37,080 nt of DNA from an uncultured Gemmatimonadaceae bacterium (GTDB lineage Bacteria; Gemmatimonadota; Gemmatimonadetes; Gemmatimonadales; Gemmatimonadaceae), in contig CAWGJO010000028.1 of assembly GCA_963822945.1 (NCBI GenBank), forward strand, positions 1 through 37,080, written 5' to 3'. Positions within the stretch are counted from its first letter, which is position 1, and each line of letters opens with the position of its first letter. The translations under genes and the position numbers were made by a program. This document shows, piece after piece, positions 23,802 through 29,122 of the stretch. Under the pieces are notes generated by a model. It searched no databases, was not told where the DNA came from, and saw only the letters and a program-made list of their open reading frames with translations.

Positions 23802-25180
23802 AGGATGTTCCCCGGCGCGAAGATCCCGTCGGGATCCAACGCGGTCTTCAGGGCGCGCATCACGTCCATCTGCATGCCCGAGAGTTGCAGCGGCAGCCAC
23901 CGCGTCTTGAGCTTGCCGATGCCGTGCTCGGCCGAAACCGTGCCGCCCATCGCGATCACGTCGCGCAGTGTCTGCTCCACCACGGCCTCCATCCGTCGAA
24001 CGTCCTCGGGATCGCGCGCCACGAAGTTCTGGTGCGGATGCCCGTTCCCCAGATGCCCGTACACGATCCCCGGTGGAATGCCCGCTTCCCGCGCATGCCG
24101 GCGGGCCATGGCCACGGCCGCGGCCGCCAGAGGATAGGGCACCGCCCAGTCGGTGGACACGCGGCGACCGCCGGATGCGAGATACGGCGCCACGCGCTCG
24201 TGCATCGTCGCCGGTACCGCGTGCCGGAGACGACGCGCTTCCCGGATGGCCGCGTCCCCCTCGAACACCCGAATGTCGGCCTCGTTCCCCCCGAACCGCC
24301 CGGCGAGTTCGAGCCACGCGTCGAGCGGCGGCTCGCTGCCGTCGGTGGTCTCCTCCACGTACACCATCGCTCCCGAACCCGCTGCCCACGACGCCGACTC
24401 CGCTTGGCCGCGGACGATGGCAAACGACTCCGCGTCGAAGTACTCCAGGCAACGCGGTCGGACCGCACGCGACTCGCGCGCGGCGACGATGAACGCCAGC
24501 GCCCGGGCTTCGTCCGGCAGCGGGATGGCCAGCCCCACCTCGCGGGCCGGCCGCTCGAGCAGCGCCAGCTCGGCTTCCACCACGATGCCGAGCGTGCCCT
24601 CGCTGCCCACGAACCAGTCCACCGGGTCCTGAACGGGGAACAGCCCGGCCGTGTTCTTCTCCACGGCTGGGCGGCGCACCTCGATCGTGGATCCGTCGGC
24701 CGTCACCACGGTGAGCGCCCGCACATGGGCGCGCGTGGGGCCGTAGCGCAGCGTGCGTGGACCTGACGCATTGCAGGCCACGGCGCCGCCCACGGTGCAC
24801 TCCTGATCGCTCGTCGGGTCGGGCGCAAAGAACAACCCGTGCGGCGCGAGCGCGCGCTGCAGGTCGCCGAGCAGCACCCCCGGTTCCACGCGCACGGTGC
24901 GCGCGCGTTCGTCCACGTCCATCACGCGCGCCATGCCGCGTGTGGAGAGCAGGATGCCGCGGTCGGTGATCGACGCGCCGGTGGTGCTGGTCTGCGATCC
25001 GGCCGCGGTGACGGGCGTGCGGTCGGCCGCGGCGCGTCGCACGATCTCCGCGACCTCGGCAGCGGAGCTCGGGCGCGCCACGGCGTCGGGGACGCGCCAC
25101 AGCCCCGACGCATCGCGGGCGTGCGCCTCGCGCACCGACCGGTCGTGGGCGAGCGCCGGCGCTCCCGCGGTATCAGCCAT
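23798..25180 (-). CDS. FAD-binding oxidoreductase of the GlcD / D-lactate / D-2-hydroxyglutarate dehydrogenase family
   Basis: CTVGGAVACNASG, GSEGTLG, YGHLGNGHPH, SAEHGIG, LDPDGIFAPG; ATG 25180 overlaps the serA stop. Confidence 0.88.
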   Translation of the reverse strand: MADTAGAPALAHDRSVREAHARDASGLWRVPDAVARPSSAAEVAEIVRRAAADRTPVTAAGSQTSTTGASITDRGILLSTRGMARVMDVDERARTVRVEPGVLLGDLQRALAPHGLFFAPDPTSDQECTVGGAVACNASGPRTLRYGPTRAHVRALTVVTADGSTIEVRRPAVEKNTAGLFPVQDPVDWFVGSEGTLGIVVEAELALLERPAREVGLAIPLPDEARALAFIVAARESRAVRPRCLEYFDAESFAIVRGQAESASWAAGSGAMVYVEETTDGSEPPLDAWLELAGRFGGNEADIRVFEGDAAIREARRLRHAVPATMHERVAPYLASGGRRVSTDWAVPYPLAAAAVAMARRHAREAGIPPGIVYGHLGNGHPHQNFVARDPEDVRRMEAVVEQTLRDVIAMGGTVSAEHGIGKLKTRWLPLQLSGMQMDVMRALKTALDPDGIFAPGNIL

Positions 25181-26799
25181 TGTCGGCAAACTGCACCACG
25201 GTGGCGGCGTTGACGTCGGGCAGCGCGAGCAGTGCGCGGCGCACGGGCTCGGTGACGGTGCCGTCGATGGAGATCACGGCCAACGCCTCGGCGCCCTGCG
25301 CCAGGCGCGCCTGGTGGTACTCGGCGATGTTCACCCCGGCGGCGCCGAGCGCGGTGCCCACGTGCCCGATCACGCCCGGCACGTCGCGGTTGCGGAGCAC
25401 GATGAGCGTGCCGCGCGGCGCGACGTCCACGTGGAAGGCGCCGATGCGCGTGAATCGCGGCGGGGCATCCAGCGCGGCCACCCCGCCCACCCGCATCTCG
25501 TCGCCGTCGGCCGAGAGGCGCACCTCCACGGCGCGGGCGTGCGGCGGCACCCCCGTCTCGGCGTACTGCAGTTCGATGCCGCGCGACTGCGCCACGGCGC
25601 GCGCGTTGATGATGTTGAGCCGTTCGCGCTCGACCACGCCTTCAAGTGCGCCGAGCGCCGCGGCGGCGAGCAGCGGGCCGCGGCCGGGGGCGAGTTCCGC
25701 GCCCAGCCGCACCGTGACCGACGAGATGGCGCGCGCGCCCCGTTCGGCCAGCAGGGCACGCGCCACGGCTGCCGAACGCCGGATGAGCAGCATGGCGGGC
25801 TGCAGCGCCTGCCAGTCGCCGCCCGCTTCGGCCACGTTCAGCGAGCGGGAGTACTCGTCGTTGAGCAGCGCGTCGCGCACCGCCGCGCAGGCGTCCACCG
25901 CCACGTTCCGCTGCGCCTCTTCGGTGCTCGCGCCCAGGTGGGGCGTGAGCAGCATGTGTGGCGCGCGGCGGAACGGATGGTCGTCGCGCAGCGGTTCCCT
26001 GGTGTAGGCATCCACGCACGCGCCGGCCAGGTGTCCGGAGACGAGCGCGTCGGCGAGCGCCTGTTCGTCCACGATGCCCCCGCGCGCCAGGTTGCAGACG
26101 ATGGCGCCCTCGCGGAGGCGGGCCAACTGCTCGGGGCCGATCATGCCCCGGGTCTCGTCGGTGAGCGGCGTGTGCACGGTGAGCACGTCGCAGCTGTCGA
26201 GCAGCACGTCGAGCGTGGTGCAGCGCTTCACCTGCAGGCTGTCGAAGCGTTCCTGCGAGATGTAGGGGTCGTAGCCGAGTACGGGCATCCCGAACGCGCG
26301 GGCGCGCACCGACACCTCGCCGCCGATGCGGCCCACGCCGACGATGCCGAGCGTTCGGCCCTTGATCTCACGGCCGAGGAGCTGCGAGCGCTCCCAGCGT
26401 CCCTCGTGCACCGATTGGTCGGCGCGCGGCACGTGGCGCAACAGGCCGATGAGCGTGGCGAAGAACAGTTCGGCCACGGCCACCGTATTGCCGGCCGGCG
26501 CGTTGATCACCGCGATGCCGAGCGCGGTGGCGGCGTCCATGTCCACGTTGTCCACGCCCACGCCGGCGCGGCCGACCACGCGGAGCCGCGTGCCCGCGCG
26601 CAGCAGCGGTTCGGAGATGCGGGTGGCGCTGCGGCCGACGATGGCGTCGTAGTCGCCGATGCGCGGCCAGCAGCTCCTGCTCCGGCAGTGTCGGCAACAC
26701 GTCCACGCTGAAGTCGGACACCGCCTGGAGCAGGGCGACGCCTTCGGGGTCGACCTCGTCGGTCACGAGAATGCGGAAGGGCATCGAGCGCGGCGGCAT
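25173..26799 (-). CDS. serA: D-3-phosphoglycerate dehydrogenase (long form with ASB and ACT domains); frameshift at ~26666
   Basis: FRILVTDEVDPEG.../IGDYDAIVGRSAT..., GRAGVGVDNVD, NAPAGNT, GVGRIG, NLARGGIVDE, TPHLGASTEEAQ, ACT domain NRDVPGVIG..G..LG..GVNIA. Start is ATG 26799 or 26784. Confidence 0.92.
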
Positions 26800-26821
26800 G
26801 GAGTTGGAAACTATTGCCAAG

Positions 26822-26894
26822 CTGGGGCGGGAGGACTCGAACCTCCAACTTCCTGATTAACAGTCAGGCGGTCTGCCAGTTGACCTACGCCCCA
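26822..26894 (-). tRNA. tRNA-Asn (anticodon GTT), CCA not encoded
   Basis: Full 73-nt cloverleaf: TGGGGCG TA GGTC AACTGGCA GACC G CCTGA CTGTTAA TCAGG AAGTT GGAGG TTCGAGT CCTCC CGCCCCA G. Confidence 0.97.
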
Positions 26895-26917
26895 TCGGTC
26901 GTACGAAACCTGCGGTC

Positions 26918-26954
26918 AAACAAAAAGCGCCCACCGGTGGATCTGGCGGGCGCT
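26918..26954 (-). terminator. Intrinsic terminator (attenuator) located upstream of tRNA-Asn
   Basis: Minus strand AGCGCCCGCC-AGATCCACC-GGTGGGCGCT then TTTTGTTT; 10-bp stem with one G:U; ends 23 nt before the tRNA 5' end. Confidence 0.85.
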
Positions 26955-26992
26955 GGCGTATCGGATGAACCGCGTGCGCGCTAACCAGACCC
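26939..26992 (-). promoter_or_regulatory. Antiterminator helix competing with the terminator
   Basis: GGGUCUGGU (26992-26984) pairs with GCCAGAUCC (26947-26939), and GCGC (26981-26978) pairs with GCGC (26953-26950). This sequesters the terminator 5' arm and loop. Confidence 0.75.
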
Positions 26993-27046
26993 CTTGGGGG
27001 AGGCCCAATTATTCCGATTGTTGGAATTGCGGCGAATGCGGATCAT
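26981..27046 (-). CDS. Asn-rich attenuator leader peptide, 21 aa (MIRIRRNSNNRNNWASPKGSG)
   Basis: ATG ATC CGC ATT CGC CGC AAT TCC AAC AAT CGG AAT AAT TGG GCC TCC CCC AAG GGG TCT GGT TAG. Five Asn in codons 7-13; lies between a promoter and a terminator upstream of tRNA-Asn. SD is weak (GAGCAGAG). Confidence 0.8.
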   Translation of the reverse strand: MIRIRRNSNNRNNWASPKGSG

Positions 27047-27085
27047 GATCTCTGCTCGTTGGTGATGGTGCAGCCTGCGGACCGG

Positions 27086-27115
27086 AGGATACGCCGGGCC
27101 GGCGGGTGCTGTCAA
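27086..27115 (-). promoter_or_regulatory. sigma70-type promoter for the leader-tRNA-Asn unit
   Basis: TTGACA (27115-27110), N18, TATCCT (27091-27086), then a GC-rich discriminator CCGGTCC; predicted start ~27079. Confidence 0.75.
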
Positions 27116-27184
27116 CCCGTGTGCGTTGCAGTGTCGACCCGCCGGCACCGGGACTTGAGCGTCCCGGCGCCGCGGGCCGCACGT

Positions 27185-29122
27185 TCACCGCTCGCCCGCC
27201 AACACCTGAATCTGCAGCCCGCTCGCGTGCCCGGGCTCGTGGTAGATGCGGTCGGTGGCCGTGACGAAGTCGCTCGCCTTGGCCTGGTAGATGTTCGGCA
27301 CGAAGGTCTGCGGGTTCCGGTCGAACGCCGGGAACCAGGAACTCTGCACCTGGATCATGATCCGGTGGCCCTTCCTGAACGTGTGCAGCACGTCCTGCAG
27401 ACGGAACCGTACCTCCGTGACCTTGCCGGGGGTGAAGGGCTCGGGCTTGTCGAACCCGTTGCGGTAGCGGCCGCGCATGATCTCGCCGCGCACGAGCTGC
27501 TGGTAGCCGGCGTAGTGCACGGTGGTGTCGGGGCGGTAGGGGCTGTCGGGCTCGCCCATGGGGTACACGTCGATGAGCTTGACCACGTAGTCGGCGTCGG
27601 TGCCCGTGGTGCTCACCCAGAGCTTGGCCGTCATCTCGCCGCCCAGCGTCACGTCCTGCGGCAGGCTGTCGGTCTCGTACGTGACCACGTCGCGGCGCTC
27701 GTCGAAGCAGCGCTGGTCGTCGCTCATGTACTGGTACATGGTGAGCCCCTGAATGGTGGGGATGCGGCAGCGGCTCGGCACCGGGTGCGCGGGGTCGCTC
27801 ACGTACTCGTCGTACGCCGCGCCGCTCGTGGGCGCCGCGAAGCCCAGCTTGCCGCCGGGCTGCAGATAGAGCTCGCGGATGGTGGCGGCCTTCGGCGGCC
27901 AGGCCGCGTACGACTTCCACGCCTTCTCGCCGGTGTTGAAGATGAGCGCGTTGGGAAGCCCCACCGCGCCCTTGCCGCCGTCCTTGAGGAAGTGGTGGAA
28001 GAACTTCGACTCGACGTCGCGCTGGAACTTGGTCTCCAGCGAATCGCCGAAGTAGATGTCGCCGTGCACCGTGTGCACCACGCCGGTGCGCGACCAGCCG
28101 CCGTGCCGGAACGGCCCCTCGACGAGGCCGGTGTAGCGATCGGGGTGTGTGGCATTCACCGACCGGAACACCTGCAGGGGGCCGTACAGGTCCTCGGCGT
28201 CGAACCAGCCGCCGACGATCAGCATGTTCGGCATGTGATGGCCGGCGATGTCCGGTCCCACGGCGCGCGCCTTCCAGAACGCGTCGTAGTCGGGATGCTG
28301 GACGATCTCCTGCCAGAAGAAGTTGTTCTTGTAGTAGCGCTCGGTGGTGGTGGACAGGGGGCCGAGCCCGAGCTGGAAGTCGTAGTCGTCGGGCAGACCC
28401 GCCCGCACCATGCCCTTGGCCCACCAGGCGTCGGGGGTGGGCGCCGCGTGCTGGATGCCGAACAGCGGGTACGTATAGAAGTACGCCTGCGTGAGCGCGC
28501 CGTTGTGGTGGAAATCCTCGAAGTAGAAGTTGGTGACCGGCGCCTGCGGCGACGCCGCCACCAGCGCCGGATGACCCGAGAGCGCGCCCATGGTGGTGTA
28601 GAAGCCGGGGTACGAGATCCCCCACTGCCCAACGAGACCGTTGTTGTCGGGAATGTGCTTCAGCAGCCAGTCGATGGTGTCGTAGGTATCCGACGCTTCA
28701 TCGACCTTGGTGTGGTCGCGCGCCTTGATGGAGTCGGGGATGAACGGCCGCACGTTCACGAACGTGCCCTCCGACATGTACCGGCCGCGCACGTCCTGGT
28801 ACACGAAGATGTACTTGTCATGCAGCATGAACGGGTCGGGGCCGAGCCGGGACGGGTACTGGTCGGGGCCGTAGGGCGCCACCGAGTAGCAGGTGCGCTC
28901 CATCACCATCGGGTAGGTGTGCGTGGGCGACGCATCCTTGGGCACGTAGACGATGGTGAACAGCTGCACCCCGTCGCGCATGGGGATGCGGTACTCGTGC
29001 TTGGTATAGTTGAGCTGGATGAACGCCGCGTCGGACTGCTGGGCGTTGGCGGGTACGGGAGCCGCGGCGGCGCAGAGGGCGGCCAGGCCGGCGGCAACGG
29101 AGAGGGTGCGAAGTGTCTTCAT
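27185..29122 (-). CDS. CocE/NonD family serine hydrolase (alpha-amino acid ester hydrolase / glutaryl-7-ACA acylase-like), secreted
   Basis: Signal peptide ...PANA-QQ; IPMRDGVQL, QDVRGRYMSEG, DTYDTIDWL, WGISYPG nucleophile, GGWFDAED, GPFRHGGW, QVQSSWFP. Confidence 0.92.
   Translation of the reverse strand: MKTLRTLSVAAGLAALCAAAAPVPANAQQSDAAFIQLNYTKHEYRIPMRDGVQLFTIVYVPKDASPTHTYPMVMERTCYSVAPYGPDQYPSRLGPDPFMLHDKYIFVYQDVRGRYMSEGTFVNVRPFIPDSIKARDHTKVDEASDTYDTIDWLLKHIPDNNGLVGQWGISYPGFYTTMGALSGHPALVAASPQAPVTNFYFEDFHHNGALTQAYFYTYPLFGIQHAAPTPDAWWAKGMVRAGLPDDYDFQLGLGPLSTTTERYYKNNFFWQEIVQHPDYDAFWKARAVGPDIAGHHMPNMLIVGGWFDAEDLYGPLQVFRSVNATHPDRYTGLVEGPFRHGGWSRTGVVHTVHGDIYFGDSLETKFQRDVESKFFHHFLKDGGKGAVGLPNALIFNTGEKAWKSYAAWPPKAATIRELYLQPGGKLGFAAPTSGAAYDEYVSDPAHPVPSRCRIPTIQGLTMYQYMSDDQRCFDERRDVVTYETDSLPQDVTLGGEMTAKLWVSTTGTDADYVVKLIDVYPMGEPDSPYRPDTTVHYAGYQQLVRGEIMRGRYRNGFDKPEPFTPGKVTEVRFRLQDVLHTFRKGHRIMIQVQSSWFPAFDRNPQTFVPNIYQAKASDFVTATDRIYHEPGHASGLQIQVLAGER

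Follow-up and report, generated by a model that had tools for sequence, protein, structure and literature searches.

How the supply of a single transfer RNA (tRNA) could be matched to the demand for it is the question raised by a locus of an uncultured soil bacterium of the Gemmatimonadaceae, in which a gene for tRNA-Asn(GTT) is preceded by a promoter, a short open reading frame (ORF) rich in asparagine (Asn) codons, and an intrinsic terminator. The locus lies on the minus strand of contig CAWGJO010000028.1 of assembly GCA_963822945.1. The whole stretch of DNA analysed, positions 1 to 37,080 of this contig, is referred to as the window. The contig is numbered C28 in the assembly, which amounts to 3.97 Mb in 45 contigs with a completeness of 88%. 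The element is probably (rough probability 0.77) a ribosome-mediated, or leader-peptide, transcription attenuator of the trp/his type, with codons for Asn as its test codons and tRNA-Asn as its controlled gene. A first-pass annotation of the window had likened the layout to that of the attenuators trpL, hisL, thrL, and pheM, and the comparison is supported by conservation, codon bias, alternative RNA pairings, and contigs from RNA libraries.

Organization of the leader

The promoter, the 21-codon ORF, the terminator, and the tRNA-Asn(GTT) gene beginning 23 nucleotides (nt) past the terminator U-tract, all read earlier from the window, are confirmed base for base. The same is true of the run of five Asn in seven consecutive codons, which are codons 7, 9, 10, 12, and 13 of the leader ORF. 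The components of the element, in the order of transcription, are as follows.

27110–27115, minus strand: −35 hexamer TTGACA of the leader promoter (promoter scan, 10/12 matches)
27086–27091, minus strand: −10 hexamer TATCCT (18-nt spacer to the −35 hexamer; 39-nt 5′ untranslated region (UTR) ahead of the ATG)
26981–27046, minus strand: leader ORF MIRIRRNSNNRNNWASPKGSG (21 codons and TAG; ATG at 27046, TAG at 26983–26981)
27008–27028, minus strand: regulatory codon cluster AAT AAC AAT AAT AAT (five Asn within seven codons)
26982–27011, minus strand: hairpin P1, regions 1:2, putative anti-antiterminator (27011–27000 with 26993–26982, −12.7 kcal/mol)
26939–26992, minus strand: predicted antiterminator, regions 2:3 (26992–26984 with 26939–26947; 26981–26978 with 26950–26953)
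26915–26954, minus strand: intrinsic terminator, regions 3:4 (stem 26954–26945 with 26935–26926, then U-tract UUUUUGUUU)
26821–26894, minus strand: tRNA-Asn(GTT), divergent "type 2" copy, the gene proposed to be regulated (ARAGORN; Rfam 69.7 bits)

The promoter TTGACA-18-TATCCT is the sole sigma-70-like site that the promoter scan found in positions 25800–28200, where 0.2 sites are expected from shuffled sequences. The last two Asn codons of the leader overlap the 5′ arm of P1, and the 3′ arm of P1 begins four codons before the stop codon (26983–26981) and includes two bases of it, the first two. Hairpin P1 may possibly double as a pause hairpin. The terminator has a 10-base-pair G+C-rich stem and a 9-nt loop, with a folding energy of −20.3 to −21.1 kcal/mol (z = −2.99; equally stable folds in none of 200 shuffles). 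A simple terminator scan of the window missed it, apparently because the scan allows loops of 3–8 nt.

The 3′ arm of P1, together with a GCGC box that starts with the last base of the stop codon, is complementary to the 5′ arm and part of the loop of the terminator. When the 5′ arm of P1 is masked, to mimic a ribosome halted at the last Asn codons, the minimum free energy fold of positions 26994–26915 is the antiterminator, at −30.2 to −31.4 kcal/mol as against −20.3 kcal/mol for the terminator, which is absent from the fold. The unmasked leader folds as P1 plus the terminator. The antiterminator occupies eight of the ten bases of the terminator 5′ arm (26953–26950 and 26947–26945 paired, 26949–26948 in an internal loop) and takes three bases of the terminator loop, 26944–26942. 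The fold model thus contains a predicted antiterminator that is mutually exclusive with the terminator and uses the terminator 5′ arm and the segment that would be covered by a ribosome at the stop codon.

Conservation and distribution of the element

The family is understood here as Gemmatimonadaceae assigned by record titles; the family counts of 98/101, 30/151, and 142/151 genomes and the search with model R2 include the unpublished genomes G007, G033, G034, and G134. Plain DNA similarity matched relatives of the tRNA in 98 of 101 family genomes, and aligned the leader in just a single other genome, a member of the same genus (query 106–294, 79% identity). Since DNA similarity recovers little beyond the tRNA, a covariance model is needed for the leader. 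The 320 nt upstream of the tRNA were read in 30 fetched loci, 13 of which share a layout of promoter, short Asn-rich ORF ending in ...RRxG, terminator GCCCGCCAG...CTGGCGGGC, and T run. Covariance model R1, built from these 13 loci, matches 30 of the 151 family genomes searched; these represent 18 of 77 genera and include 21 of the 108 genomes of high quality. The expectation that relatives carry a conserved Asn-rich upstream ORF and a terminator before tRNA-Asn is therefore borne out across many genera.

The element extends beyond the family to a sister family of the same order. In a sample of 150 other genomes from the phylum, R1 matches 6 of 31 genomes from the same family, 6 of 71 from the sister family, and none of 48 from ten further families. 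Four of the six sister-family matches precede tRNA-Asn, one precedes the prephenate dehydratase gene (pheA), and one precedes the gene for the glutamate synthase large subunit (gltB). One sister-family example has the leader MMAVRTVSIGNNNRHSSRSTG, with the tRNA 4 nt past the element. An exact-pattern scan of one genome per species, for 185,579 species, returned 19 loci, all in metagenome-assembled genomes titled Gemmatimonadaceae, Gemmatimonadales, or Gemmatimonadetes, with tRNA-Asn behind 14 of them. A broader covariance model, R2, added only one true new locus (a Cys leader in genome G062); another of its matches, L125, was rejected as a gene 3′ end with a terminator. Three matches of R1 (L059, L060, and L064, the last at G134:C461) were read as terminators after ORF ends and not as leaders.

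Two loci carry other arrangements upstream of tRNA-Asn. At L004 (G004:C19), no ORF separates the promoter from a GCCCGC...GGCGGGC hairpin that comes immediately after it and has a T-rich tail; this may be a decayed version of the element or a relative that lacks the ORF. At L011 (G054:C88), a second type-2 copy of tRNA-Asn is preceded by a promoter and a leaderless-looking Cys-rich ORF, MEPMCVACPPGCSGGSCLS, which has zero Asn codons and runs through a terminator-like hairpin just ahead of the tRNA.

Linkage to the tRNA gene

Among 30 fetched loci matched by R1, 22 have a tRNA-Asn(GTT) gene downstream on the same strand (21 by ARAGORN), and 8 are without a tRNA. At one of the 22 linked loci, L039, only the 5′ part of the tRNA is present, because the contig ends within it. 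The gap between element and tRNA is at most 20 nt in 12 of the 22 loci, and 0–5 nt in seven of them (L035, L039, L045, L048, L049, L050, and L051); therefore, these 12 loci have no room for a separate tRNA promoter. In the window, the promoter scan found no other promoter-like site in positions 25800–28200, a range that includes the gap between the terminator and the tRNA. Independent transcription of the tRNA from a promoter past the terminator, which would speak against attenuation, is thus seen neither in the window nor accommodated at the 12 compact loci. A second promoter is conceivable at loci with gaps of 70–130 nt.

Of the 26 tRNA-linked leaders, 20 have a strong −35/−10 pair ahead of them. 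The ATG of 13 of these 20 is positioned 5–9 nt past the −10 hexamer, which suggests that these 13 mRNAs would be leaderless; the window copy, with its 39-nt 5′ UTR, differs from them. In one genus (L031, L037, L101, and L108), the 40–50-nt spacer between terminator and tRNA contains four to five tandem heptamer-like repeats, CACTAGT/CACCAGT.

Codon content of the leaders

The 22 tRNA-linked leaders of the family are 18–25 codons long, and the homologous ORFs keep their frame, start, and stop. Asn accounts for 91 of their 442 codons (20.6%), as against a genome background of approximately 1.5%, roughly gauged on the long ORFs, with 1.34 million codons. Of the AAY triplets, 91 are in frame, none is in frame +1, and two are in frame +2. 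The codon AAT makes up 59 of the 91 leader Asn codons (65%), compared with its share of 25% in the genome. In 25 of 26 tRNA-linked leaders, an in-frame Asn codon is located exactly at the 5′ edge of P1, 8–10 codons before the stop. Six leaders of the same scaffold that precede other genes contain 7 Asn in 120 codons (5.8%) and are Leu-rich (17.5%), and among non-tRNA leaders Asn is found at the P1 edge in only two of nine. As judged from these sequences, the leader ORF appears to be selected at the codon level. Because the leaders are conserved and their Asn codons are in frame-specific excess, the combination of Asn leader and terminator before tRNA-Asn is evidently more than a product of chance.

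The same counts bear on whether the ORF is fortuitous and a protein or metabolite binds the leader RNA, as in a riboswitch or a TRAP/PyrR-like system. The candidate site, ATTCC-N7-GGAAT, is a 5-base-pair inverted repeat in the Asn run; no other patch of the region, which has a GC content of about 70%, is rich in AT. However, the inverted repeat is not conserved in relatives, AAY triplets would not be expected almost wholly in one frame (91, 0, 2), and the leader matches no Rfam family (best E 0.57). Recognition of the RNA in this manner is very improbable.

The 3′ end of the ORF is constrained in another way. In the penultimate codon, bases 2 and 3 (CT) are kept and base 1 varies, giving S, P, A, T, F, or L. 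Since the last two bases are fixed and the first is free, it is the RNA rather than the peptide that appears constrained there, and the ...RRxG end is best read as conserved for RNA pairing. The R-R-x-G-stop C-terminus present in most leaders, whatever gene follows, might instead mark an arrest peptide similar to TnaC or SpeFL, through which a small molecule would be sensed within the ribosome tunnel, with the Asn codons being incidental. Yet the conservation tracks the RNA helix while the penultimate residue changes, the window peptide ends in KGSG, and sister-family copies end in STG, GPG, RCV, and LSV; an arrest peptide can hardly be considered a serious candidate.

Covariation of the alternative pairings

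Hairpin P1 and the terminator are 92.6% paired on an alignment of 35 elements, as against 40–51% when the pairing is slid. The helices of P1 are paired in about 91% of the cells of the 35 sequences, with compensatory changes at two pairs, and the stem pairs of the terminator are 93.9% paired. Alignment pair 179/193 of the terminator is A-U in 12 sequences and G-C in 9. The antiterminator is 85.8% paired, compared with 79.8 ± 1.2% in shuffles and 18–44% when slid. It has 17 compensatory cells, distributed over four of its eight pairs, as against 7.5 ± 2.2 in shuffles, none of 500 of which reached the observed value. Alignment column 179 covaries with both of its partners, from U-A to C-G in the antiterminator and from A-U to G-C in the terminator. 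Terminator, anti-antiterminator, and antiterminator all keep their pairing through compensatory changes, in agreement with the covarying stems that had been anticipated for relatives.

The two strands of the antiterminator also fit each other within individual elements. When region 2 of each of 30 distinct elements is paired with region 3 of the same element, the mean duplex energy is −21.0 kcal/mol, compared with −19.0 kcal/mol for the duplex with region 3 of other elements. The cognate duplex is the stronger one in 21 of the 30 (partner-permutation p = 5e-5).

Contigs from RNA libraries

Soil metatranscriptome runs contain 7–14% of the sampled words of the window, and no run contains the whole stretch. 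Two contigs from different studies bridge the leader, the terminator, and the 5′ part of the tRNA: the contig of run X1 is 243 nt long and corresponds to positions 26845–27087 with 9 differences, and that of run X2 is 182 nt long and corresponds to positions 26836–27017 with 4 differences. Both extend more than 31 nt to either side of the terminator and of the tRNA 5′ end, and neither reaches the flanking protein genes. Three differences fall inside the ORF (27011, 27032, and 27035); all of them are synonymous third-base changes, one of which is AAT to AAC. A contig of run X4, from another relative, has a terminator 3′ arm and T run directly ahead of the tRNA. In runs X3 and X4, coverage of the window is confined to the tRNA, and the flanks are foreign. 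Stretches of the window that no contig reaches are uninformative. The contigs provide a moderate hint that leader, terminator, and tRNA are co-transcribed.

In another reading, the promoter, the ORF, and the terminator are an independent small gene, encoding a small RNA or a micropeptide, and the tRNA is supplied by constant leakage of the terminator, with Asn playing no part. Termination would yield a separate RNA of approximately 160 nt, many relatives express the same tRNA without the element, and the attenuator RNA rnTrpL is known to act in trans in Sinorhizobium. However, a small gene leaves unexplained the Asn excess of the tRNA-Asn-linked copies (20.6% versus 5.8%), the fixed Asn codon at the P1 edge, and the conserved, covarying antiterminator, and its peptide is poorly conserved outside the part constrained by RNA pairing. 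Constant leakage behind a small gene is therefore improbable.

Proposed mechanism of attenuation

We infer a sequence of events in vivo that leads from ribosome stalling to the switch, the processing of the tRNA, and a physiological aim. Transcription would start from the strong promoter, and the 21-codon leader would be translated while it is being made. When Asn-tRNA(Asn) is plentiful, the ribosome would reach the UAG codon and cover region 2, which consists of the P1 3′ arm and the GC box past the stop; upon ribosome release, P1 would re-form. In either state, the 5′ arm of the terminator would be free, the terminator hairpin would form, and the polymerase would stop 23 nt before the tRNA. 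When the decoding of Asn is slow, the ribosome would stall on the last Asn codons, positioned on the 5′ arm of P1. Region 2 would then be unpaired and could pair with the terminator 5′ arm and loop, and the resulting antiterminator would permit read-through. The tRNA would be released from the read-through transcript by RNase P and would decode its own test codons, closing a negative feedback loop. In the simplest reading, the aim of the loop could be to match the supply of tRNA-Asn to the demand for Asn decoding.

Several observations weigh against such an attenuator. The element is missing from 17 of the 30 loci that were read upstream of the same tRNA (one of them judged on 66 nt only) and is therefore dispensable; it is carried by only about a fifth of the sampled family genomes. 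Two tRNA-linked leaders, L051 and L087, hold a single Asn, and L051 has Asp at the P1 edge. Three of the five Asn codons of the window are too far upstream for a stall to unmask region 2, and no clear Shine–Dalgarno sequence was seen in the 39-nt 5′ UTR of the window leader. More tRNA is of no obvious help when Asn itself is short. Folded as a whole, the leader has no advantage in stability over shuffled sequences (z = −0.62); therefore, a single sequence proves little, and the case rests on comparison. Within that comparison, regions 2 and 4 resemble each other by necessity, and the covariation counts are inflated because they were made on a model-fitted alignment of related sequences, with the structure derived from the same sequences. 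The RNA-library contigs come from relatives 96–98% identical to this genome, they cannot show transcript ends, and RNA libraries may contain DNA.

Leaders of the same scaffold before other genes

The scaffold also precedes protein genes. At L088 (G190:C2), an FGFFF leader, MRNTGRFGFFFTS... / MRNTGRFGFFFTSTGG..., lies before pheA, which is followed by the gene for DAHP synthase. A CCC leader, MTLRCCCLAPR..., lies before a gene for a ferredoxin-type nitrite/sulfite reductase in two genomes (L068/L124; G120 and G062). Judged by sequence, the Phe and Cys cases behave like textbook attenuators and thus provide internal positive controls when the Asn version is interpreted likewise. The scaffold appears to be a generic attenuator module of this lineage.

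Other copies precede genes of nitrogen metabolism. In three family genomes (L061, L065, and L067), gltB is located behind leaders such as MMSSNVRANLRLNLPISLAKSG, and the sister-family locus L091 has a leader with four Asn, MSRRNARNANPVAN, before gltB. The leader at L114 resembles the family gltB leaders, a likeness drawn from the leader alone. Leaders at L062, L066, and L069 precede an aspartate-aminotransferase-like gene, which is followed by an amidohydrolase gene in L062; the case of L069 rests on the unpublished genome G134. The gltB and aminotransferase leaders are Leu-rich and share an N-L-R-L motif. All three loci of the RPNRN type, MPLARRNRPNRNPDK... and two relatives, precede an ammonium transporter gene (amtB). 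One of the three amtB products was verified by TIGR00836 (408 bits), and the other two by 93–96% identity over 62–67 residues. Leaders that precede amtB read MPLARRNRPNRNPDKRQCSSRRSG, MLFTLRDRPNRNHQKRQSSRGRSG, and MNPDWPARPNANSKRNSSFRRSG at L120 (G274:C388), L099, L110, and L111.

Because the scaffold copies ahead of amtB and gltB in relatives have leaders that contain Asn, the decoding of Asn may also report nitrogen status. The switch would then be the same, its signal would be nitrogen, and the tRNA would be one member of a regulon with the ammonium transporter, glutamate synthase, and the aminotransferase. Asn-containing leaders of the scaffold precede four kinds of gene, amtB follows every locus of the RPNRN type, gltB recurs in the family and at L091, and the aminotransferase occurs with an amidohydrolase elsewhere. 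GatB is present in the genome of the window; therefore, amide transfer onto tRNA is available. However, the gltB and aminotransferase leaders of the family have only 0–3 Asn and are richer in Leu, Asn seldom occupies the P1 edge of non-tRNA leaders, and no copy of the scaffold was found before the amt gene of this genome. That genome has one amt gene (43% identity, tblastn), upstream of which are a promoter and a hairpin without the scaffold. A regular-expression scan for further scaffold copies in this genome returned only the tRNA leader, and tblastn found no gltB N-terminus in it at E 1e-20. A nitrogen signal is possible, if on the unlikely side. It is compatible with the matching of tRNA supply to demand, and neither reading excludes the other.

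A wider proposal is more doubtful. The speed of Asn-codon decoding might serve as a read-out of amide nitrogen throughout Gemmatimonadales, with one scaffold switching amtB, gltB, the aminotransferase with an amidase, and an inducible second tRNA-Asn. The tRNA would perhaps be the preferred substrate of Asp-tRNA(Asn)/GatCAB and would raise the capacity for the synthesis of Asn on tRNA.

A second tRNA-Asn gene

The leader-linked tRNA-Asn is not the only one in the genome. A second tRNA-Asn(GTT), at C1:54955–55029, is canonical-looking and quite different in sequence from the leader-linked copy; it lacks a leader, is followed by a terminator, and is served by a promoter-like sequence of its own. 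A canonical tRNA-Asn is also present in all five high-quality leader-bearing genomes tested. The attenuator would, on this evidence, govern an extra, divergent tRNA-Asn isodecoder beside a leader-free copy. Both Asn tRNAs of the genome have U1-A72 and G73. The leader-linked tRNA-Asn shares its D-loop (AACUGGCA) and anticodon stem, as compared by eye, with tRNA-Gln(CUG) of the same genome, a likeness that is a lead and not a result. Glutaminyl-tRNA synthetase (TIGR00440) had no match in the 88% complete genome, from which the expected weak cross-match of glutamyl-tRNA synthetase is missing too, so that the negative carries no weight.

A lineage without asparaginyl-tRNA synthetase (AsnRS), in which tRNA-Asn is the sole scaffold for Asn synthesis, was considered and rejected. 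AsnRS (TIGR00457) scores over the cut-off in 142 of 151 family genomes; therefore, the family need not rely on the tRNA as its sole route to Asn. The genome of the window also has two AsnB-family genes. Its asnS, at C12:133574–134824, is split over reading frames into several pieces with TGA stops between them.

Relation to known attenuation systems

The classical enterobacterial leader-peptide attenuators are trpL, hisL, pheL, thrL, leuL, and ilvL. The element shares with them a promoter-proximal short ORF rich in cognate codons, control codons at the start of region 1, three alternative pairings (1:2, 2:3, and 3:4), and an intrinsic terminator before the regulated gene. It differs from them in sensing, as proposed, Asn, in having a tRNA as its product instead of an enzyme operon, and in that most copies in relatives look like leaderless mRNAs. 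The usual targets of attenuators are operons for amino-acid biosynthesis or synthetases; here the target is a tRNA gene. No Rfam leader family (His_leader, Trp_leader, Leu_leader, Thr_leader, and others) matched the leader at gathering scores or at E up to 10, and the best Rfam match, at 15.8 bits, is an unrelated small-RNA model.

The pheM-pheST attenuator of E. coli exerts leader-peptide control over a synthetase protein. Similarly, the element tests the codons of one amino acid and precedes a gene of the machinery that translates them. Unlike in pheM-pheST, the target is the tRNA itself; therefore, the regulated product would directly decode the test codons. Asn-specific T-boxes precede asnS and transamidation genes in Firmicutes. 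In T-box riboswitches (RF00230), as proposed here, the charging state of a tRNA decides between terminator and antiterminator in a 5′ leader. By contrast, uncharged tRNA is bound by the T-box RNA itself, for which Stem I, a specifier loop, and the T-box sequence are required, whereas the present element would need translation. The leader gave no T-box match, either above the gathering threshold or with E relaxed to 10.

In the usual description, the expression of bacterial tRNA genes is either constitutive or governed by growth rate. If the proposed mechanism is correct, a tRNA gene that measures its own decoding performance would form a direct supply-and-demand loop for one tRNA species, and asparagine would be added to the amino acids sensed by attenuation. 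Because the scaffold carries Phe or Cys codons before matching genes and Asn-containing leaders before amtB and gltB, it suggests a regulatory module that is based on translation, extends across the lineage, and may link the assimilation of nitrogen to the charging of tRNA.

The mechanism of trp attenuation is summarized in PMC4007540, where 14 leaderless leader peptides, belonging to genes for synthetases and biosynthesis, are also predicted in Deinococcus deserti. In mycobacteria, leaderless short ORFs with polycysteine have been described as Cys-responsive attenuators of operonic expression (bioRxiv 10.1101/834739). In both cases, as in the relatives of the window, a short ORF rich in one amino acid is located at or near the 5′ end of the transcript, and the CCC leader before the sulfite/nitrite reductase gene parallels the mycobacterial case. 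The D. deserti and mycobacterial elements control synthetase or biosynthesis genes, and none is described as controlling a tRNA gene. The passages of PMC2965389 that were consulted mention neither asparagine nor tRNA genes as targets. The first-pass annotation knew of no leader-peptide attenuator that senses Asn or controls a tRNA gene, and none was found in the full-text literature covered, which mostly leaves out subscription journals. The mechanism is classical; the signal (Asn) and the target class (a tRNA gene) are new with respect to that literature, although absence from print is not proven.

Genes flanking the element

The gene behind the tRNA in the window is serA.

25173–26799, minus strand: serA, phosphoglycerate dehydrogenase (TIGR01327, 459.5 bits, residues from model position 66 on)

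The ATG of serA is 22 nt past tRNA-Asn, and no terminator was seen in the 22-nt gap between them in the window. It is possible that serA is co-transcribed with the tRNA, in the genus of the window only. The candidacy of serA as the true target of the attenuator was set aside because the downstream gene differs in other genera: serA is behind the tRNA only in the genus of the window (L040 and L044), and elsewhere the gene 3′ of the tRNA and its strand vary, with a hairpin behind the tRNA at some loci. The reading frame of serA breaks within 26368–26579, the overlap of its two ORFs. Residues up to approximately model position 65 are encoded in ORF 26820–26368, and the remainder in ORF 26579–25173. 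The splits in serA and asnS are likely to be assembly indels in this metagenome-assembled genome, with real pseudogenes as a conceivable alternative. On the other side of the element, upstream of the leader, the window contains a gene for a CocE/NonD-family hydrolase.

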